A stretch of 64,000 nt of DNA, from NCBI GenBank assembly GCA_902793315.1, contig CADBCT010000001.1, forward strand, positions 34,727 to 98,726. The letters run 5' to 3'. The DNA is from an uncultured Erysipelotrichaceae bacterium (GTDB taxonomy: Bacteria > Bacillota_I > Bacilli_A > RF39 > UBA660). Below, one piece after another: positions 2,237 to 53,045 of the stretch. The stretch's first letter is position 1. The number at the start of each line of letters is the position of its first letter. The position numbers and the translations under genes are program-made. Under the pieces are notes generated by a model. It saw only the letters and a program-made list of their open reading frames with translations, made no database searches and was not told where the DNA came from.

Positions 2237-2265
2237 ACCTCCTCAATTATATTATACCATATATA

Positions 2266-2715
2266 TCAATCTTTTCTTTGATTTTTAAAAAAAGAATTTA
2301 AGATTTTTTTTGATTCTAATGGACTTAAATTTGAAATAAAATTAACTTCAGGATTTATTTTATCCTTTTTAAAAATTTCTGTAATTATTTGCAGATTATT
2401 TAAATCGGAATTACTAAGAGCTGAATAAACATTTTTAATTCTAGCTTGCTTTATAGCACTTGCACACATAGGACATGGATCTAATGATATATAAATATCA
2501 CAATCATTTAAACGCCAATTATTCAACTTTTTTTGAGCTATTTTAATAGCATTTAATTCAGCATGTTCTAATACAGAATTATTTTTTTCTTTTTTATTAT
2601 ATCCAAAACCAATTATTTTGTTATCTTTAACAATTACTGCTCCTACTGGAACTTCTTTTATCCTATATGCTTTATATGCATATTTTATTGCTAAATCTAA
2701 AAACTCTTTTTTCAT
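2266..2715 (-). CDS. tadA: tRNA-specific adenosine deaminase (CMP/dCMP-type zinc deaminase)
   Basis: HAELNAI...PCPMCASAI zinc-binding motifs. Start placed at the internal ATG (MKKEFLDLAIKYAYKAY) because it is preceded by GGAGGAATT. The 28-codon upstream extension in the ORF track overlaps an SRP RNA. Confidence 0.85.
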   Translation of the reverse strand: MKKEFLDLAIKYAYKAYRIKEVPVGAVIVKDNKIIGFGYNKKEKNNSVLEHAELNAIKIAQKKLNNWRLNDCDIYISLDPCPMCASAIKQARIKNVYSALSNSDLNNLQIITEIFKKDKINPEVNFISNLSPLESKKILNSFFKNQRKD

Positions 2716-2730
2716 AATTCCTCCAAATAA

Positions 2731-2808
2731 AAAGTGCACATGAAAGGTGAATTTTAAGGCTGCTATCTTCCGATTCTGACCTGGTTCAATTTCTTTCATT
2801 GCACGTAT
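2731..2808 (-). ncRNA. ffs: Small signal recognition particle RNA (4.5S/scRNA-type SRP RNA)
   Basis: Minus strand reads GTGCAATGAAAGAAATTGAACCAGGTCAGAATCGGAAGATAGCAGCCTTAAAATTCACCTTTCATGTGCAC. The terminal helix GTGCA(A)ATGAAAG/CTTTCAT(C)GTGCAC closes a hairpin. The ACCAGGTCAG...GGAAG..AGCAGCC core matches the conserved SRP RNA domain IV (E. coli 4.5S: ACCAGGUCAGGUCCGGAAGGAAGCAGCC). A U-tract follows. In B. subtilis scr lies next to dnaX, so the position is syntenic. Confidence 0.6.
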
Positions 2809-2890
2809 ATATTTTATTATAAAAAATAAAAAAAGTAAATATTTGTTATTATTTTTATTTTTTAAGGAATATTTTTGCTATTTTTAGTTA

Positions 2891-2906
2891 TGTTTCACGT
2901 GGAACA
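2891..2906. promoter_or_regulatory. parS: parS site 1 (Spo0J/ParB centromere-like site)
   Basis: TGTTTCACGTGGAACA is the exact reverse complement of the B. subtilis parS consensus TGTTCCACGTGAAACA. Confidence 0.8.
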
Positions 2907-2918
2907 TTTATTATTTCT

Positions 2919-2932
2919 ATTTCCTGGGAAAT
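2919..2932. promoter_or_regulatory. Noc-binding-site (NBS)-like palindrome 1
   Basis: ATTTCCTGGGAAAT versus the B. subtilis NBS consensus ATTTCCCGGGAAAT (one central mismatch). 6-bp perfect inverted arms. Confidence 0.55.
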
Positions 2933-2952
2933 AATTTTGTTACTTTTAGTTA

Positions 2953-2968
2953 TGTTTCACGTGGAACA
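2953..2968. promoter_or_regulatory. parS: parS site 2
   Basis: TGTTTCACGTGGAACA, perfect match to the parS consensus (reverse complement). 62 bp from site 1. Confidence 0.8.
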
Positions 2969-2980
2969 TTTATTGTTTTT

Positions 2981-2994
2981 ATTTCCTGGGAAAT
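2981..2994. promoter_or_regulatory. NBS-like palindrome 2
   Basis: ATTTCCTGGGAAAT, identical to copy 1. 28 bp downstream of parS site 2. Confidence 0.55.
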
Positions 2995-3018
2995 AATTTT
3001 GTTACTTTTAGTTATGTA

Positions 3019-3034
3019 TGTTTCACGTGGAACA
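3019..3034. promoter_or_regulatory. parS: parS site 3
   Basis: TGTTTCACGTGGAACA. 66 bp from site 2 (unit with a 4-bp TGTA insertion). Confidence 0.8.
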
Positions 3035-3046
3035 TTTATTGTTTTT

Positions 3047-3060
3047 ATTTCCTGGGAAAT
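3047..3060. promoter_or_regulatory. NBS-like palindrome 3
   Basis: ATTTCCTGGGAAAT. The fourth repeat unit is truncated before this element. Confidence 0.55.
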
Positions 3061-3080
3061 AATTTTGTTACTTTTAGTTA

Positions 3081-3096
3081 TGTTTCACGTGGAACA
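3081..3096. promoter_or_regulatory. parS: parS site 4
   Basis: TGTTTCACGTGGAACA. 62 bp from site 3. Array ends here, before the gyrA terminator. Confidence 0.8.
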
Positions 3097-3100
3097 TTAA

Positions 3101-3127
3101 CAAAAAAAAGATACGTTTCTGTATCTT
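3101..3127 (-). terminator. Rho-independent terminator downstream of gyrA
   Basis: AAAAGATAC-GTTTCT-GTATCTTTT hairpin flanked by an A8/T8 run immediately after the gyrA stop. Confidence 0.7.
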
Positions 3128-5575
3128 TTATTGTTCTTCATTAGTTTCTTCAAATGCTTCTTCTTCTTTTTCAACTAAAGCTACTGTGGAAACTTTTTGT
3201 TCATCCTTAAGATTAATTAATCTAACTCCTTGTGTAGCACGTTTTAAAGTAGATACTTGATCTAATGGTAATTTAATAATAATACCGCTATTAGTCATAA
3301 TCATTAAATCTAATGGTGCATCTACTCTTAAACATTTCAATGAAGACATCATACCATTCTTTTCAGTAACATTAAGAGCTTTAACACCTTTACTACCTCT
3401 ATGTGTTAATCTGTATTCATCAACTACTGTTTGTTTTCCATATCCATTTTCTGTTACGATTAATACCATATCACCAGATGATACAACTTCTGCTCCTACT
3501 ACGATAGATCCATCAAGTTCCATACCTTTAACGCCAGAACTACTTCTTCCCATGCATCTAACTTCGTTTTCATTGAATCTAACTAATCTACCATTGCTAG
3601 CACCAATAACTATTTCTCTATTTCCATCAGTACTTTTAACACTGATTAACTCATCATCTTCTTTAAGAACAATAGCTATTTTTCCACTCTTTCTAATATT
3701 ATCAAATTCGTTGATACTAGTACGTTTTACAATTCCTTTTCGAGTTGCAAACATTAAATATTTAGTAAAATCATCATCTTGTTTTATATTTATTATCGAA
3801 CTAACGTTCTCATCTTTCTCTAGTGGTAATAGATTAATTATTGGTAAACCTTTAGATTGTCTAGAGAATTCTGGAATCTCATAACCTTTCATTCTATATA
3901 CTTTACCTTTATTTGAGAAGAATAAGATATAATCATGCGTTGATGATGAAATTAAATGTTCTACAAAATCTTCTTCATTAGTTGCCATACCTTTAATTCC
4001 TACACCACCACGGTTTTGAGTTCTATACGTATCACTCTTTAATCTCTTAATATACCCTTTATTTGTTAAATTAATTACAATATCTTCTTCTGGAATTAAA
4101 GACTCATCTTCAATATATTCAATAGCTGTCATATCAATACTTGTACGTCTTTCATCTCCATATTTTTGTTTAATTTCAAGCAATTCATTCTTAATTACTT
4201 CTAAAATCTTTGCTTCACTAGCTAAAATTGCTTTTAATTCCTCAATAGTTTTTAATAAATCAGTAAGTTCATTTTCAATCTTTTCACGCTCTAAACCTGT
4301 TAATCTACGTAATTTCATCTCTAAAATTGCATTTGATTGAACTTCTGTTAATTTAAACCTACTCATTAATGTATCTTTAGCTATTTCATCGGTTTTAGAT
4401 CCACGAATTACTTTAATTACTTCATCAATATTATCTAAAGCTATTTTTAAGCCTTCTAAAATATGTACTCTTTTTTCTGCTACATCTAGATCAAATCTAG
4501 TTCTTCTAATAATTACTTCCTTTTGATAATCAATATATTTTGCAATAATATCTTTTAATCCAAGAGTTTTAGGAACTCCTTGATCTAACATTAAGAAGAT
4601 AATTCCATAAGATGTTTGAAAAGATGTATGTTTATATAACTTATTTAATACTACTTGAGCATTAGCATCTCTTTTTAATGTAATTGTTATCTTAATACCA
4701 TTCTTTAAATCAGAATGATAATCAGAAATACCTTCAATAGTTTTATTATGAACTAATTCAGCTACTTTATTTTTTAAATCTAAAGTATTTATACCATAAG
4801 GTACTTCATCAATAATAATTTGTTGTTTTCCATTACTTTCTTCAATAGTAGCCCTACTTCTAACTGTAATAGTTCCCCTACCAGTTTCGTAAGCTTTTCT
4901 AATACCACTATTTCCAAGAATAATTGCTCCCGTAGGGAAATCTGGTCCTTTGATATATTTCATTAATTCATCTAATTCAATATCAGGATTATCAATATAT
5001 GCAACACATCCATCAATAACTTCACTTAAGTTATGAGGTGGAATATTTGTTGCCATACCAACAGCTATACCTGTAGTTCCATTAACTAAAATATTAGGAA
5101 ATCTAGATGGTAAAACAACTGGTTCTTTTTCGCTTTCATCAAAATTTGGTACAAAATCAACTGTATTTTTATTGATATTTCTTAATAATTCCAATGATAT
5201 CTTTGATAAACGAGATTCAGTGTAACGCATTGCAGCAGCACCATAACCCTCAATATTACCAAAATTACCATGTCCATCAATTAACATATATCTATAAGAG
5301 AAATCTTGAGCCATACGAACCATAGCTTCATAGATTGAAGAATCTCCATGTGGATGGAAATTACCCATAACTTCTCCGACAGTTTTAGCACTCTTTCTAT
5401 GAGGTTTATCAGGTGTATATCCAGAAGAATACATAGAATATAATATTCTTCTATGAACAGGCTTTAAACCATCTCTTAAGTCTGGAATAGCACGAGCTGT
5501 AATAACACTCATTGAATAGTCTAAAAATGAATCTTGTACTTCTTTTACTATATTGTTATTTTCTAACCTATCCAT
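3128..5575 (-). CDS. gyrA: DNA gyrase subunit A
   Basis: 815 aa. [19 protein letters not shown], catalytic Tyr region, GyrA-box-containing C-terminal beta-pinwheel repeats. Confidence 0.95.
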
Positions 5576-8745: not shown

Positions 8746-9192
8746 TTAACTATTTTTATGGTTTCTTAAAATAATATCTAATCTGGAAGCTCTAGATAAT
8801 TGATTTTCTATCGATCTATATGAACAATTAACTATTATTTCACGATCATTATCAAAAACTATTTTAGTACTATTAAATTCCATTTTCTCAAGTTTTTTAA
8901 CTCTTTTTAAAGATATCCAAACACAATCATCAGAAGATGGTGATGTTGTTGGAAAAACAATTAAATTATCACTATCTTCAATTACTATAGGTACTTTATA
9001 TTCAGCACCTAAAATATTTTTAGCACCATTTTTTCTTCCTTCGTAGGTACTTCCAAAATACTTACAACTTTCTTCCATAATACTAAAAGTTTTTTGATTG
9101 ATAATATAACTGTCATTATCCTCATAAACCAAACTACTTTCCAGATCATTAGGTACTAAAGCTAATGTACCTTTATTAATTTCATATTTCAT
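8746..9192 (-). CDS. comK: ComK-family competence transcription factor
   Basis: From MKYEINKGTLALVPND (ATG preceded by AAGGGGGATAAT). Several blocks align to B. subtilis ComK: YEVNGATIAVLPEE/YEINKGTLALVPND, CRFFGSSYAGRKAGT/CKYFGSTYEGRKNGA, IFLFPTLSSTRPQCGWISH/LIVFPTTSPSSDDCVWISL, NSFENQVYRTAWL/RSIENQLSRASRL. Confidence 0.75.
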   Translation of the reverse strand: MKYEINKGTLALVPNDLESSLVYEDNDSYIINQKTFSIMEESCKYFGSTYEGRKNGAKNILGAEYKVPIVIEDSDNLIVFPTTSPSSDDCVWISLKRVKKLEKMEFNSTKIVFDNDREIIVNCSYRSIENQLSRASRLDIILRNHKNS

Positions 9193-9326
9193 ATTATCCC
9201 CCTTAATGAAAACAATCCTTCGTTTTCGTGCAAAATATATCATATAAATTTGTAGAAATTTGTCGAATTTTGTAGAAAATTCTTGTTTTCTATAAATATA
9301 TTACGTATTTTTTTGAGTTTTCCACA

Positions 9327-10608: not shown

Positions 10609-11979
10609 TTACACACCACCTATATCTTTCTTTAATTTTTCTATAATATTAGCTAAATCTTTATTTATTTTTATTTCATTTTCAATTTTTTCAACTGAAT
10701 ACATTACTGTAGTATGATCTTTACCACCAAATTCAATAGCAATCTTTGGAAATGACTCGGTAGTCATATTTCTGCAGAGATACATAGCAATTTGTCTAGG
10801 AAAAGAAATATTAGCACTTCTTTTCTTACTTCTGATATCTTCAGTTGATATTTGAAAATATTCAGAAACTATTCGTTGAATTCGTTGAATGTTATTTTTC
10901 TCCCCTATTCCTTTACTTATATTATCTTTAAGAGCCTCAATTGCTAAATCTAAAGTAATTTTTTCTCCACCCATTATTGTGGAATAAGCAACTAATCTTG
11001 TAACAGCTCCTTCTAGTTTTCTAACATCAGGTCCTATATTATTAGCCATATATTCTATTACTTCGTCTGGAATATCATCATTAAAATCATTAGCAACTAT
11101 TTTTTTCTTTAATATTTCTTTCTTTAATGCTAATTCTGGAGGATAAATATTTGCTTGTAATCCCCATGTAAATCTTGTTCTTAATCGTTCTTCCAAAATT
11201 TTCAAATCATCTGGAGATCGATCAGAAGATATAACAATTTGTTTATTATCATTATGTAAAATATTAAAGGTATGAAAAAATTCATCTTGTGATTTTGAAG
11301 CACCACCTAAGAATTGAATATCATCAATTAATAGGACATCAACATTTCTATACTTATCTTTAAAGAAATCTACATAATTGAAATTGGTTCCATCATCATC
11401 TCTTCTACTGGCTTTAACAAAATCTTGTCTAAATTGTTCACTAGTAACATATAATACACATTTATTACTATGTTCTACAACATAATTTCCTATTGCATGC
11501 ATTAAATGTGTTTTACCTAATCCACTATTACCATATAGAAATAAGGGATTATAAAGTAAACCAGGATTCTCAGCAACACTTAAAGCAGAAGCCTGAGCAA
11601 ATTTATTACTATTTCCTACAATAAAATTATCAAAAGTATAATTTTTATTTAGATTACTATTAATATTCTCAACTTTCTTAGGAGTATTTTCATATAATTC
11701 TTTTTCTTCTTCTTTATTTTTTTCATCTTCTAATTCATCGCTTAAAATAAAGACAAGTTCATAATTAGTACCGGTTAAAATATTTAAATTATTCTTTATA
11801 ATATCAGAATAATTATTAGATAAATGTTTTTTATGAATAGCCATCGGAACTATTATATAAGCTTTTTCATTATCTAATTTATATAATTTGGTATCCGAAA
11901 ACCAAGTATCATAAGAGAGAGAGGTTAGTTCTGTTTTTAAATTTTCTAATAATTTAGACCATAAAACATCTACATTCAT
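10609..11979 (-). CDS. dnaA: Chromosomal replication initiator protein DnaA
   Basis: AAA+ Walker A GNSGLGKTHL, Walker B LLIDDIQFL, C-terminal DNA-binding helix ...KDHTTVMYSVEKI. Start set at ATG (MNVDVLWSKLLENLK) preceded by GGGGAGATGG. The ORF-track start is a TTG 6 codons upstream. Confidence 0.93.
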   Translation of the reverse strand: MNVDVLWSKLLENLKTELTSLSYDTWFSDTKLYKLDNEKAYIIVPMAIHKKHLSNNYSDIIKNNLNILTGTNYELVFILSDELEDEKNKEEEKELYENTPKKVENINSNLNKNYTFDNFIVGNSNKFAQASALSVAENPGLLYNPLFLYGNSGLGKTHLMHAIGNYVVEHSNKCVLYVTSEQFRQDFVKASRRDDDGTNFNYVDFFKDKYRNVDVLLIDDIQFLGGASKSQDEFFHTFNILHNDNKQIVISSDRSPDDLKILEERLRTRFTWGLQANIYPPELALKKEILKKKIVANDFNDDIPDEVIEYMANNIGPDVRKLEGAVTRLVAYSTIMGGEKITLDLAIEALKDNISKGIGEKNNIQRIQRIVSEYFQISTEDIRSKKRSANISFPRQIAMYLCRNMTTESFPKIAIEFGGKDHTTVMYSVEKIENEIKINKDLANIIEKLKKDIGGV

Positions 11980-12063
11980 TCTACCATCTCCCCACAAGAA
12001 CCATTAACAATTTTTATTCTACATTAAATAGTTAAAAAAATAAATGATTTTTTATTAAAAAAA

Positions 12064-12197
12064 ACAATCCACAAAGAATTCCCAAAGTTATACACAACAA
12101 AGATATTTATATAATAAAGATAAAATGCTGTTTTCCACATTTTCCACAAATTTTTAATAAACAACATAAAAAAAGTTATCAACAAGGTTGTGAATAT
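12064..12197. promoter_or_regulatory. oriC: DnaA-box cluster between dnaA and rpmH (oriC upstream box region and dnaA promoter)
   Basis: ACAATCCACA (12064-12073), TTATACACA (12088-12096), TTTTCCACA x2 tandem (12131-12139, 12140-12148), TTATCAACA (12176-12184), TGTGAATAT (12189-12197). All within 1-2 mismatches of TTATCCACA or its reverse complement. Confidence 0.55.
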
Positions 12198-12276
12198 TGT
12201 TGAAAATAATTTTTCATTGACAAATAAGTGATTCTATTATTATAATAATGTAGATTTATGTTTGGAGGTGGAAGGC

Positions 12277-12399
12277 ATGAAAAGAACATATCAACCAAAT
12301 AACCGTAAAAAATCTAAAAGACTTGGTTTTTTCGCACGTAAAAAAACAAATATCTTAAATCGTCGTCGTCGTAAGGGACGCAAAGTACTTTGTAAATAA
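12277..12399 (+). CDS. rpmH: 50S ribosomal protein L34
   Basis: [40 protein letters not shown] (40 aa). Preceded by GGAGGTGGAAGG. Missing from the ORF track because of its small size. Confidence 0.92.
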
Positions 12400-12446
12400 A
12401 ATACCGCTGTAAACAGTGGTTTTTTACTCTGAAAAGGAGTGATAGT

Positions 12447-12782
12447 ATAAGAAAACTATATATTGTAAGAACAACAAGAGATTTCGATGATATTATAAAA
12501 AACGGGAAAAGCATTAAAAATAAGTATTTTGTAATTCATTACAAAGATAATAATTTGCCATATGATAGATTTGGAATATCTGTTAGTAAAAAATTAGGAA
12601 ATGCTGTTTTTAGAAATAAGTATAAAAGAAAAATTAGAACAATAGTTGATAATTATAAAAAAGAGTATCTTAATAATAAAGATTATATTATAATATTAAG
12701 GAAAGAGGCATTATCTAGAAATTTTAAAGAATTAAATAAAGATTTTTTAGAATTAATGCAAAAAAATAAGAAAGGAATTTAA
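12447..12782 (+). CDS. rnpA: Ribonuclease P protein component. 5' end uncertain: no canonical start codon in frame.
   Basis: Frame continues upstream of the track ORF as ...IRKLYIVRTTRDFDDIIKNGKSIKNKYFVIHYKDNNLPYDRFGISVSKKLGNAVFRNKYKRKIR, which is the RnpA family. GGAG at 12435-12438. Only ATA/ATT/CTG codons are available between the upstream stop (12393) and conserved residues. Confidence 0.7.
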   Translation: MRKLYIVRTTRDFDDIIKNGKSIKNKYFVIHYKDNNLPYDRFGISVSKKLGNAVFRNKYKRKIRTIVDNYKKEYLNNKDYIIILRKEALSRNFKELNKDFLELMQKNKKGI

Positions 12783-12785
12783 GAA

Positions 12786-13721
12786 ATGAACAGTAAAAAT
12801 AAAAAGAGAATAATAGTAATACTTTTCTTATTAATCTTAACAACAGGATGTACTAAAACATTAACTGATGAAAATAAAAAGCCTGTTAGAAATGAGACAA
12901 CTGGTCAAACTTTGACAGCAAATATTTTGTGTCAGCCTACAAATAAAACAACTAAAGAATTATATAAGAAAAATGGTGTAAAAATAGATAAATTACCTGA
13001 ATGCAGTGAATTTAAAATAACTTCTGGAAAATATGAAGGTTTATGGACTTCTATTTTTGTTAAACCATTGGCTTATTTCTTATTAGTTTTAGGTAGTTTA
13101 GTTAAGAATTATGGTATTTCTGTAATAATAATAAGTTTAATAATTAGGTTTATTGCTTATCCAATCACTAAAAAAACAGCTATGCAATCAGAAATGATGA
13201 AAAAGGCACAACCAGAAATAAATAGATTACAAAAGAAATATGCTAATAAGAAAGATCAAGAGTCTATGATTAAACAAAATCAAGAGATGATGGCAATTTA
13301 TAAGAAATATAATATTAATCCAATGGGTGGTTGCTTATTTGCTATGATTCAATTACCAATTTTTGTAGCTTTCTTTGAAGCAGTACAAAGAACACCAGTA
13401 ATTTTTGAAGATAAGTTCTTAGGATTACAATTGGGTACAACACCTTCAGTAGGTATAGCAAATCCAACTTTTTATTCTTATATAATCTTAATGTTATTAA
13501 TTGCTGGAACAACATATTTATCATTCAAAATGACTGGAATGAGTAATAATGATGATCCTACAATGAAAATGATGCCAACTATGATGACAGTGATGATCAT
13601 TGTAACTGCAATGTTCATGCCAACAGGTTTAGGTATATATTGGATTACATCTAATTTATTTACGATGGCCCAAAATTATATTGTGAGAAGGAGTAAGAAA
13701 GATGGAAAAGCGAAAGTTTAG
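12786..13721 (+). CDS. yidC: Membrane protein insertase YidC/SpoIIIJ (lipoprotein type)
   Basis: 311 aa. Lipobox LILTTGC, then Oxa1/YidC 60-kDa IMP domain with 5 TM segments. rpmH-rnpA-yidC-jag operon order. Confidence 0.85.
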   Translation: MNSKNKKRIIVILFLLILTTGCTKTLTDENKKPVRNETTGQTLTANILCQPTNKTTKELYKKNGVKIDKLPECSEFKITSGKYEGLWTSIFVKPLAYFLLVLGSLVKNYGISVIIISLIIRFIAYPITKKTAMQSEMMKKAQPEINRLQKKYANKKDQESMIKQNQEMMAIYKKYNINPMGGCLFAMIQLPIFVAFFEAVQRTPVIFEDKFLGLQLGTTPSVGIANPTFYSYIILMLLIAGTTYLSFKMTGMSNNDDPTMKMMPTMMTVMIIVTAMFMPTGLGIYWITSNLFTMAQNYIVRRSKKDGKAKV

Positions 13722-19164: not shown

Positions 19165-20430
19165 ATGTATCCAGATACTAAAGATGAAGTAGTACAATTA
19201 TATCTAGATGACATTATTCCAAATAGGTTTCAACCAAGAGAAGTATTTGATGAAAAAGCCTTAAAAGAATTAGCTGTATCTATTAAAGAACATGGTGTAA
19301 TACAACCAATAATTGTACGAAGTGTAAATGGCAAATATGAAATAATAGCTGGAGAAAGAAGATATAAAGCTTCAGCTTTAGCTGGTCTTACTAAAATTCC
19401 CGCTATTGTTAGAGATTTAGATGATAAAGAAAGTTCAAAAGTAGCTTTACTTGAAAACTTACAAAGAAAAAATTTAAATCCAATTGAGGAAGCGAAAACA
19501 TATCAAAAAATATTAGAAATAGATCAAATGACTCAAGAAGAATTAGCTAGAACAATGGGTAAAAGTCAATCAGCTGTAGCTAATAAATTAAGACTTCTTT
19601 CTTTACCAGATGAAATTCAAGAATATCTATTGAAAGAAGAATTATCAGAAAGACATGCTAGAGCACTACTTAATTTAGATGATGCTGAAAAACAAAAAGA
19701 AATGGCTAAAAAAGTTATTGATAATAAAATGAGTGTTAGGAATTTGGAAGCAGAAATTAAAGAAATGACTGGTAAAACTAAACCAAAACAAGAAGAAGCT
19801 TCTGAAACACCTGAAGTAATAGCTTCAACAAAAGCTTTTGTTAATGATAATCCATTAATTCCAACAGCTAAAGTTGAAGAAGATAAGTCAAACTATGGAA
19901 AAGTAACAATTGCACCACCAGAAGGAGAAGAAATGCCTTCTAGTAAATTTATAAATTATGGTGAAATAGATAAGGAAGAAGAAAAAACACCAATGCCTAT
20001 ACCAAATGTTATAACTTCAATAGATGTTAATGATGTTAAAGAGAATACCAATGATATTAAATCTGATGATACAAGCAATTCTGGAAACGCCTTAGATAGT
20101 TTGTTAAATTTAGGTAATCCCACATCATCTATACCGGCAAATGAATTTATAACACCAGCAGAAAAAATTGTAAAAACCGATTCATTAGAAGATCCTATAG
20201 AAGATACTTCTTCAGAATATTTTAATACATCAGATTTATCAAATATTGAATTACCACCAAGTATAATAAATCCTTCTGAAGAAGAAAATACTGGAACTTA
20301 TAGTATAGAAGAAGCAGTAGAAAAAATAAAAAATACTATAGAAGATTTAAAAAAGCATGGAATTAATCTAAATGCTGATGAAATGGATTTTGAAAAATCA
20401 TATCAAATGATTATAAAGATAGAAAAATAA
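19165..20430 (+). CDS. noc: Noc-like ParB-family protein (nucleoid occlusion protein paralogue) with a long low-complexity C-terminal extension
   Basis: The N-terminal 200 aa align to B. subtilis Noc/ParB: DIIPNRFQPR, GVIQPIIVR, EIIAGERRYKA, ALLENLQRKNL, AVANKLRLLSLP, SERHARALL. Position between rsmG and soj is the same as B. subtilis noc. Residues about 200-421 are E/S/T/N/P-rich with no Noc counterpart. Sigma-A-like promoter TTGAAA-N17-TATAAT at about 19094-19125. Confidence 0.7.
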   Translation: MYPDTKDEVVQLYLDDIIPNRFQPREVFDEKALKELAVSIKEHGVIQPIIVRSVNGKYEIIAGERRYKASALAGLTKIPAIVRDLDDKESSKVALLENLQRKNLNPIEEAKTYQKILEIDQMTQEELARTMGKSQSAVANKLRLLSLPDEIQEYLLKEELSERHARALLNLDDAEKQKEMAKKVIDNKMSVRNLEAEIKEMTGKTKPKQEEASETPEVIASTKAFVNDNPLIPTAKVEEDKSNYGKVTIAPPEGEEMPSSKFINYGEIDKEEEKTPMPIPNVITSIDVNDVKENTNDIKSDDTSNSGNALDSLLNLGNPTSSIPANEFITPAEKIVKTDSLEDPIEDTSSEYFNTSDLSNIELPPSIINPSEEENTGTYSIEEAVEKIKNTIEDLKKHGINLNADEMDFEKSYQMIIKIEK

Positions 20431-25404: not shown

Positions 25405-26760
25405 ATGAGTTATTCAGAATGGTCCACAAGAGAAGCGATGCAGAAGAAAGCAGCAGCAGTAAATCTAGATACAGGAGTAAAAAAATCTGGATTACCAGTA
25501 ATGTATGATGATAAATATCTATACATTGATACAAGTGAAGCACATAATCTATTAATTGGAAGTACAGGTAGTGGAAAGACTCAGACTGTTATCTTACCGC
25601 TTCTAAAATTAGCAATGATGGCAGAAGAATCAATAGTGATAAATGACCCTAAAGGTGAAATTTTTGGAAGAACAGCCCAAAAATTAGAAGATGAAGGTTA
25701 TAAAAACATTGTGATAGATTTTGAAGATTCACGTATGGGAAATAGTTGGAATCCACTTACTTTAGCTTATAAGCAATTTAAAGAAGGAAATTCAGATAAA
25801 GCAATAGAGTTAATTGAGGATTTAGGTTACTATTTAATTGCTGATACACATAGACAAGAAACTGATCCTTTTTGGACAAATTCAACTATTAATTATTTTA
25901 CTGGATTGGTATTATATTTATTTAGAAATGCAAAAGATGAAGAAATTAATTTAAATAGTGTTGCAAAATTAGCTAATTCATTGTTGGATAAAACTTCCAG
26001 TGAAAAGTTTTTAAAGAAATCAGAAAAGGATCCTATAATGTTCATGAAATTAGCAGGGACATTACAAGCTCCACCAGAAACTAGAGGAAGTATTATCTCA
26101 GTATTTAATCAAAAGATTGAAAGATATTTATCTAAAGAAAATTTAGCTAATATGCTTTCAACTAGTGACTTTGATTTTTCTACAGTAAGTAATGAAAAGA
26201 CAGCTATCTTTATAGTAACTGGTATTAATAGTTTTTGTCGTAATTTAATCCCATTATTTGCTAATCAAGTGATGGATGCAGTTTCACTATATGGCAATAA
26301 AGAAAAAAGATTAAATTTACTATTAGATGAGTTTGATTCGTTGATACCTATTAAAGATTTTGCATTGAAATTAGGTTATTGTAGATCAATAAATATTAGA
26401 GTTACAGTAGCTATTCAAAGCTTTGTACACTTAGCTAATATGTATTCTAAAGAGGATGTTGAAATACTAAAAATGTGTTTTGGAAATACTATTTATCTAT
26501 TATCAAATGATATTTACACATTAGAAGAAATATCTAAAAATTGTGGTACACACATAGTAGATAACAAAGAAGAACCTCTAATTTCTGTTGCTGAATTAAA
26601 AACGCTTAGTATTTTTTCAGCAATTATCTTAATGCCAAGAATGATGCCTTTTAAGACTAAGTTATTACCAGACTATGAAATAGACTGGGGTTATGAAATG
26701 AAAAAGGCAACTATTCCTAGTAGAGAAACTAATACAATAAAAATATATGAAGAAAAATAA
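25405..26760 (+). CDS. TraG/TraD/VirD4-family P-loop ATPase (type IV coupling-protein-like), orphan
   Basis: 451 aa. Walker A GSTGSGKTQ, Walker B LLLDEFDSL, and architecture of the T4SS coupling-protein (TrwB/VirD4) ATPase domain. No N-terminal TM anchor and no other conjugation genes nearby. Confidence 0.6.
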   Translation: MSYSEWSTREAMQKKAAAVNLDTGVKKSGLPVMYDDKYLYIDTSEAHNLLIGSTGSGKTQTVILPLLKLAMMAEESIVINDPKGEIFGRTAQKLEDEGYKNIVIDFEDSRMGNSWNPLTLAYKQFKEGNSDKAIELIEDLGYYLIADTHRQETDPFWTNSTINYFTGLVLYLFRNAKDEEINLNSVAKLANSLLDKTSSEKFLKKSEKDPIMFMKLAGTLQAPPETRGSIISVFNQKIERYLSKENLANMLSTSDFDFSTVSNEKTAIFIVTGINSFCRNLIPLFANQVMDAVSLYGNKEKRLNLLLDEFDSLIPIKDFALKLGYCRSINIRVTVAIQSFVHLANMYSKEDVEILKMCFGNTIYLLSNDIYTLEEISKNCGTHIVDNKEEPLISVAELKTLSIFSAIILMPRMMPFKTKLLPDYEIDWGYEMKKATIPSRETNTIKIYEEK

Positions 26761-52729: not shown

Positions 52730-52791
52730 TATATTAATAACGCATTTGATTACTATGACAAGTATTTTGTCATGGCGGAAGGAGAGATAGT

Positions 52792-53004
52792 ATGAAAAAA
52801 GATATACATCCAGAAATTAAGGATTGTAAAGTAACTTGTGCATGTGGAGAAACTTTCACTTGCAAATCAACTAAATCAGAAATAAATGTTGAAATTTGTT
52901 CAAAATGTCATCCTTTTTACACAGGAAAACAAAGTAGAGCTTCACGTGCAGGAAGAGTTGATAAATTCAACAAGAAATATGGATTTACTAAAGAAGCAGA
53001 ATAA
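52792..53004 (+). CDS. rpmE: 50S ribosomal protein L31 (type A, zinc-binding)
   Basis: [11 protein letters not shown]...CACGETF...[10 protein letters not shown] is canonical L31 with a CxxC...CxxC motif. Confidence 0.93.
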
Positions 53005-53045
53005 TCTGCTTTTTTTGTGTTATAATTTAGGAGAGATGATTTAAT

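Follow-up and report, generated by a model that had tools for sequence, protein, structure and literature searches.

A minimal 4.5S-type SRP RNA gene directly upstream of tadA in an uncultured member of the Bacilli

Results

The minus strand directly upstream of tadA carries a gene (ffs) for a minimal 4.5S-type RNA (~71-80 nt) of the signal recognition particle (SRP), which delivers membrane proteins to the membrane; the gene occupies positions 2804-2734 together with a short U tail to about 2725. The locus lies in a 64-kb stretch of DNA (hereafter the window; 24-29% GC) from an uncultured member of the Bacilli with ~27% GC that is found in rumen and gut samples, and the ffs-tadA sequence is identical across five independent assemblies of one species. 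We give a probability of roughly 0.93 to the explanation as a whole, namely: a minimal ffs with a predicted promoter and a putative leaky terminator, a tadA gene that would be expressed by read-through, and an apparent N-terminal extension of tadA that is a chance open frame. The features of the locus are as follows:

2834-2839 (-): predicted -35 element of ffs, TTTACT; found by consensus scan and matching the clade-conserved TTG at -38 to -36
2811-2816 (-): predicted -10 element of ffs, TAAAAT; found by consensus scan and matching a TAtAAT-like block at -15 to -10
2721-2813 (-): extent of the Rfam Bacteria_small_SRP match, including AT-rich flanks that are probably outside the mature RNA
2734-2804 (-): core SRP RNA hairpin, 71 nt (helix 5 and helix 8), reading GUGCAAUGAAAG...ACCAGGUCAGAAUCGGAAGAUAGCAGCC...CUUUCAUGUGCAC; from the minimum free energy (MFE) fold, RNAalifold, covariation and the alignment to E. 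coli ffs
2758-2785 (-): domain IV core, ACCAGGUCAG-AAUC-GGAA-GAU-AGCAGCC, predicted binding site of the Ffh M-domain; from invariance and knowledge of SRP RNAs (PMC5454536)
2737-2740 (-): invariant UGUG of the distal element with the bulged G2739; its 5' partner CAA is at 2801-2799
2725-2733 (-): T-run (TTTTTATTT) directly after the closing helix; likely 3' end and putative leaky intrinsic terminator
2720-2724 (-): Shine-Dalgarno (SD) sequence of tadA, GGAGG, read from the sequence; a purine-rich SD lies between T-run and ATG in relatives too
2716-2799 (-): spurious 28-codon in-frame extension of tadA, over the SRP RNA gene; from Pfam, relatives and gene calls
2266-2715 (-): tadA (tRNA adenosine deaminase family), true 149-aa ORF including the stop; from Pfam and public gene calls

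Read along the minus strand from 2840 downwards, the order is thus TTTACT (2839-2834), 17 nt, TAAAAT (2816-2811), ATATAC and the hairpin (2804-2734), followed by TTTTTATTT (2733-2725), GGAGG (2724-2720), AATT and the tadA ATG at 2715 (MKKEFLDL...).

Identification of a small SRP RNA

A scan of the whole window against Rfam 15 matched Bacteria_small_SRP (RF00169) at 2721-2813 on the minus strand with 54.8 bits (gathering score 40; E 3.1e-9), and the match spans model positions 1-97 of 97. At gathering thresholds, the scan returned two matches in the 64 kb, of which this is one. A custom covariance model (R1), built from 24 small SRP RNAs, gives 95.7 bits over 2721-2814. Every sequence and structure feature of RF00169 that can be checked here was found in the window RNA. 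The preliminary description of this DNA had proposed a minimal SRP RNA of about 78 nt directly upstream of the true tadA start, and had quoted its domain IV as ACCAGGTCAGAATCGGAAGATAGCAGCC. That string is present letter for letter at 2785-2758 (-), and the proposal itself is borne out by the RF00169 match, by covariation among 24 homologues and by the alignment to E. coli ffs.

No other significant SRP match was found within the window; a second model match, at 52958-53035 (16.8 bits, E 0.19), is noise. An L31-Firmicutes ribosomal protein leader (RF03156) is matched at 52753-52784 (+) with 36.4 bits against a gathering score of 33.3.

A reading of the gene as a large SRP RNA (RF01854, the B. 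subtilis scRNA type) was rejected. The small model is the best in its clan, and there is no room for the Alu domain (helices 2-4) of that ~260-270-nt type: because the predicted promoter ends 7 nt before the helix, and the T-run and the tadA SD come directly after it, no sequence is left for such a domain. Genuine large SRP RNAs in Bacillaceae loci score 235-250 bits.

The folding energy of the 100-nt region is not distinctive (-18.5 kcal/mol, z = -1.09), as is expected of an AU-rich RNA with conserved internal loops. Since shuffled sequences fold equally well (27 of 200 did so), folding energy was dropped as evidence, and the case for an SRP RNA is built on covariation and the covariance-model match, with no weight given to thermodynamics.

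Structure, conserved motifs and covariation

The closing helix consists of 12 pairs between GUGCAAUGAAAG (2804-2793) and CUUUCAU-G-UGCAC (2746-2734), with one bulged G at 2739 that is unpaired in both the MFE structure and the RNAalifold consensus. This helix had been recognised in the preliminary description; the additional A and C quoted in brackets there are absent from the DNA, and the real irregularity is the bulged G2739 in the 3' arm. Helix 8 is capped by a GGAA tetraloop of the GNRA type at 2771-2768, closed by AUC/GAU.

For the comparative analysis, 24 RNAs were aligned with MAFFT, without consulting their structure, and the consensus was derived by RNAalifold. It agrees in outline with the single-sequence MFE structure and comprises four helical segments with 23 pairs. 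The CAA, GUCAG, AGCA and UGUG columns are invariant among the 24 homologues, and the neighbouring G, G and C of domain IV are invariant or nearly so. The domain IV loop nucleotides also agree with the Rfam consensus. Compensatory (double) changes occur in 18 of the 23 pairs. Paired cells make up 95.8% of the total, compared with 65% in column shuffles and 34-50% when the partners are shifted by 1-3 columns; for covariation, the score of 0.82 stands against 0.09-0.14 for the controls and was reached by none of 500 shuffles.

The E. coli 4.5S query was checked against 5,426 E. coli genomes and agrees with the annotated ffs at every position (100% identity); the gene is present in one copy per genome in all 5,425 genomes with a match. 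In the model alignment, the G2804-C2734 hairpin corresponds to E. coli 4.5S nt ~20-88, with the window UGUG at U82-G85 and CAA at C23-A25. The E. coli RNA, type member of RF00169, has the same GGAA tetraloop, GGUCAG/AGCAGCC loops and CAA/UGUG element as the window RNA. The spacing from tetraloop to distal element is similar too: the window RNA has the same number of nucleotides between them on its 5' side and 2 nt more on its 3' side. The two RNAs differ in length. E. coli 4.5S RNA, at 114 nt, continues for ~19 more positions on each side past the distal element, whereas the 71-nt window hairpin closes just 5 bp past it, so that the window RNA keeps nothing of 4.5S RNA beyond its two functional modules (nt ~20-88): the tetraloop/Ffh module and the distal one.

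By homology, the CAA/UGUG element with its bulged G would be the distal site where the Ffh-FtsY GTPase dimer triggers GTP hydrolysis. The bulged G2739 would be the counterpart of E. coli G83, which we take to be the base that inserts into the GTPase site. In the published mechanism, docking of FtsY at the tetraloop comes first; once the Ffh-FtsY NG dimer has relocated to the distal region, a base of the RNA is inserted there into the GTPase site (PMC5454536); a GTPase-activating role of the distal element in the window RNA is suggested by this work on E. coli. Neither Ffh nor FtsY is among the 20 larger ORFs scanned in the 64-kb window. YidC is encoded at 12786-13721 (+).

Minimal SRP RNAs of comparable length (~75-80 nt) are found in the Mollicutes, for example the ~77-nt RNA of Mycoplasma mycoides, which is a single hairpin. 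The Mollicutes are wall-less, unlike the window host, in which genes for a class A penicillin-binding protein and a LysM/M23 peptidase were found. A search of the literature gave no citable statement on the smallest SRP RNAs.

Gene order and distribution among relatives

Relatives were collected by a DnaX-centred scan with one genome per species, which returned 80 loci, the closest of them from an uncultured rumen 'Bacilli bacterium' (57% identity). Among the nearest loci, 22 were scanned with Rfam, and 18 of these have RF00169 matches of 50-66 bits at ~460-810 nt upstream of dnaX; tadA was placed in the gap between ffs and dnaX by tblastn. The order ffs-tadA-dnaX is common to 17 reference species, listed as uncultured Bacilli, Bacillota, Erysipelotrichaceae or Erysipelotrichia. 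In addition, seven contigs that encode exactly the 149-aa TadA of the window share the neighbours recF, gyrB, gyrA, tadA, dnaX, ybaB, recR and holB.

The exact 24-nt core GGTCAGAATCGGAAGATAGCAGCC was found in 115 metagenome stretches, with a single match in each. When 80 of these were fetched, tadA was found directly after the hairpin in 75, while two are cut by the contig end and three have an unrelated context. The gyrA C-terminus and parS are seen in most of the fetched loci that have enough upstream sequence. These matches belong to related species, whose hairpins are at best 66/71 identical to that of the window; no contig of the same species is among the stretches returned by the 24-nt core scan.

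The arrangement gyrA-parS-ffs-tadA-dnaX is therefore a conserved layout that a large clade shares, made up of uncultured Bacilli and Erysipelotrichia from gut and rumen. The location of ffs between tadA and parS had been pointed out before; the order is correct, and it is not peculiar to this genome, since it recurs in the 17 species and in 75 of the 80 metagenome loci. It should be noted that parS lies between ffs and tadA in L010 and L016, where the two genes are ~180 nt apart, and in at least the metagenome loci L108 and L143, so direct abutment of ffs and tadA is not obligatory. As a side observation, L010 and L014 are reference metagenome-assembled genomes titled 'uncultured Muribaculaceae bacterium' that carry a Firmicute-type, low-GC ffs-tadA-dnaX locus; these contigs are probably mis-binned or mis-named.

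Outside this clade, SRP RNA genes are also found close to dnaX. In 52 of the 80 loci, R1 detected an SRP RNA that precedes dnaX on the same strand. The order in six Bacillaceae loci is tadA, large SRP RNA, dnaX, in agreement with the earlier statement that B. subtilis scr sits between tadA and dnaX, and in contrast to ffs-tadA-dnaX in the window. B. subtilis scr (RF01854) has the same function and the same origin-near neighbourhood (tadA, dnaX, ybaB and recR), and the domain IV of Bacillaceae SRP RNAs is homologous to that of the window RNA (R1 matches positions 13-79). The B. subtilis scRNA itself is 271 nt long and contains an Alu domain; RNase III and RNase J1 cut it from a 354-nt precursor, which has a 3' terminator hairpin of its own (PMC1935012). 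Lactobacillaceae and some Clostridia (L026, L040, L053; L037, L046, L047, L085, L038) have an RF00169-type RNA (57-62 bits) that lies ahead of dnaX and shares its strand; for three loci from each of the two groups, the order was established as tadA, small SRP RNA, dnaX. In the Clostridia loci, as in the window, the SD and ATG of the next gene follow close behind the T-run. Unlike in the window, tadA is upstream of ffs in both groups and the helices extend further past UGUG, and in the Lactobacillaceae loci a GC-rich terminator hairpin stands separately behind ffs. The linkage of ffs to dnaX is thus old and widespread, and the position of tadA between the two is clade-specific. E. coli ffs, by comparison, stands alone between unrelated genes, whereas the window ffs adjoins tadA. 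Our search for literature on linkage or co-transcription of ffs, tadA and dnaX found nothing on this arrangement.

Promoter, 3' end and predicted expression of tadA

A consensus scan found TTTACT-17-TAAAAT upstream of ffs. Because promoter-like sites are no commoner in the window than in shuffled sequence (6 found, 7.3 expected), promoter calls were used only where conservation backs them. For ffs it does: a TTG at -38 to -36 and a TAtAAT-like block at -15 to -10, with positions counted from the invariant CAA, are conserved in 76 distinct upstream sequences. Transcription from this clade-conserved promoter would start ~7 nt past the -10 element, at about G2804, with which the helix begins.

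On the 3' side, a T4-8 run lies directly behind the helix in all 18 clade genomes compared, and in 16 of the 18 the tadA ATG is 9-23 nt (median 13) past the T-run, with just an SD between; the same succession of T-run and tadA repeats in 75 of the 80 metagenome loci. In the window, by our count, the SD comes 5 nt and the ATG 13 nt after the U-run. A simple terminator scan does not call the hairpin and T-run, as the loop exceeds its size rule. The stem is a 71-nt irregular one in place of a short GC-rich one, and the part of it beside the U-run is AU-rich save for GUGCA/UGCAC.

On the basis of these features, we propose that the hairpin and U-run would end most transcripts, and that the primary transcript would be essentially the mature RNA, with little or no processing needed. 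E. coli differs in this respect, as the 4.5S precursor is processed at its 5' end by RNase P (PMC1935012), whereas the start of the window RNA is predicted at the start of the helix. The remaining transcripts would extend into tadA from the ffs promoter. Such read-through is the most likely way in which tadA is expressed, because the spacing of SD and ATG leaves no room for a separate promoter. RNA ends, termination and read-through are all predictions from sequence.

Further downstream, an extended -10-like sequence, TGgTATAAT, lies at 2251-2259 (-), between the tadA stop (2268-2266) and the dnaX ATG (2230). dnaX may have its own promoter there, in which case the start would fall at the edge of the dnaX SD.

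Alternative readings of the locus

The six-frame ORF at 2266-2799 is 177 aa long, i.e. 28 codons longer than the 149-aa ORF that begins on the same strand at the GGAGG-preceded ATG 2715, just as had been described. It could be taken at face value, as a TadA with a genuine 28-residue N-terminal extension (MKEIEPGQNRKIAALKFTFHVHFLFGGI) and an SRP RNA likeness of secondary importance, because the frame is indeed open from ATG 2799. However, the extension falls outside the deaminase domain, given that the Pfam matches to dCMP_cyt_deam_1 and MafB19-deam begin at residue 3 or 4 in the 149-aa form (30 or 31 in the 177-aa form), and nothing resembling an SD precedes ATG 2799, in contrast to the GGAGG before ATG 2715. 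Moreover, an in-frame stop closes the frame within or just after ffs in 17 of 17 related species, none of which has a comparable extension; a collection of 153 billion gene positions holds no record of the 177-aa product, and the region shows covariation of the RNA type. The 177-aa reading is therefore effectively refuted already, and the extension is a chance open frame across an RNA gene, an accident of AT-rich sequence. It had been expected that automated annotation would over-extend tadA or miss the RNA. This did not occur: gene callers are not misled by the frame, with the 149-aa TadA on record on seven public metagenome contigs (rumen and gut assemblies) and the 177-aa form on none, and a default Rfam scan finds the RNA. 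A further thought, that the genome has its functional ffs elsewhere and the present locus is a redundant or decaying duplicate, takes its strength from the fact that our scan covered 64 kb of the genome. It is very improbable in view of the state of the gene, in which every family-invariant position is intact and whose sequence is identical in the five independent assemblies, and in view of its distribution: 17 other species and 75 metagenome loci have ffs in this position, each metagenome stretch has a single match, and ffs is single-copy in the 5,425 E. coli genomes.

With respect to transcription, the competitor of read-through is that ffs terminates fully at the U-run and that its 3' half contains a separate promoter for tadA, or that tadA is translated from a very short or leaderless transcript, the close spacing being a matter of genome compaction. 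-10-like hexamers are easy to find in a 27% GC genome, promoter scans are weak here, as noted above, and the ~180 nt with parS that separate tadA from ffs in L010 and L016 indicate that tadA can be expressed without abutment. Against this, only 13 nt (range 9-23) separate T-run and ATG in 16 of 18 genomes, and a promoter for tadA would have to sit within helix and UGUG positions that are constrained by the function of the RNA; the consensus scan detected no -35/-10 pair between 2804 and 2716, and the retained SD argues against leaderless translation. We regard a separate tadA promoter or leaderless transcript as rather unlikely, and expression by read-through from the ffs promoter as the preferred reading.

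Surroundings of the locus

Between gyrA and ffs are four exact parS sites (TGTTCCACGTGAAACA), at 2891-2906, 2953-2968, 3019-3034 and 3081-3096, arranged in direct repeats of 62-66 nt that cover 2884-3098; the 64 kb contain no further parS site. The repeat region varies between assemblies of the same species, with missing units or N-gaps, and 62 of 72 related loci have parS no more than 600 nt upstream of ffs. Another palindrome-like motif, TTTCCnnGGAAA, occurs at 2920-2931, 2982-2993 and 3048-3059 (three matches, 0.12 expected). Each of the four parS sites is followed by an interval, and the motif is present in all of these intervals but the last one, beside ffs. Upstream of ffs it was found in 33 of the 72 related loci, at 1.6 per kb compared with 0.09 per kb elsewhere in those loci. 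An AT-rich inverted repeat with 12-nt arms (92% complementary) and a following T-run is located at 3103-3132 (-), immediately behind the gyrA stop codon; it resembles a terminator and would separate gyrA from parS and ffs.

The GC skew flips near 12 kb, between the divergent genes dnaA (10609-11997, -) and yidC, and the replication origin is probably in the ~790-nt gap between them, at about 11998-12785. As this flip is beside dnaA, the ffs locus is close to the origin. Other genes observed in the window include a ComK-family gene between dnaN and recF (8746-9243, -; PF06338, E 7e-45), which is also present in the same-species contig L002; a ParB homologue of 421 aa at 19165-20430 (+), in which Pfam ParB domains cover residues 8-201 only; and a homologue of VirD4/TraG-type coupling proteins at 25405-26760 (+), next to ychF.

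Discussion

The SRP RNA described here adds one more member, from an uncultured lineage, to a well-known family, and is detectable with routine tools. Standard Rfam scanning finds this textbook component, and standard gene callers leave it undisturbed. At the same time, six-frame ORF lists can swallow small RNA genes, and in this instance a real non-coding RNA within such an ORF was recognised by eye. With little more than the tetraloop/Ffh module and the distal element, the RNA is near the smallest workable SRP RNA.

Stable-RNA genes are known to head mRNA operons, as in E. coli ssrS-ygfA and tRNA-tufB. If read-through holds, ffs-tadA would resemble these cases, with a structural RNA providing the promoter and the 5' portion of the message; it would differ from them in that the RNA's own hairpin and U-run are proposed to act as a partial terminator. 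Tentatively, and at somewhat below even odds, the SRP RNA may be dual-purpose throughout the clade (more than 90 genomes and contigs), serving both as the RNA of an essential ribonucleoprotein and as a promoter-proximal leader and leaky terminator that sets a low level of expression of tadA, an essential gene for tRNA editing, and perhaps of dnaX-ybaB-recR too. Given its conserved place next to parS and the other palindrome (TTTCCnnGGAAA), a very strongly transcribed RNA gene would then stand right beside the ParB loading zone, near the origin. The fixed layout, in which there is no room for a tadA promoter, would make this clade a testable case of a stable-RNA gene that both drives and throttles an essential gene.
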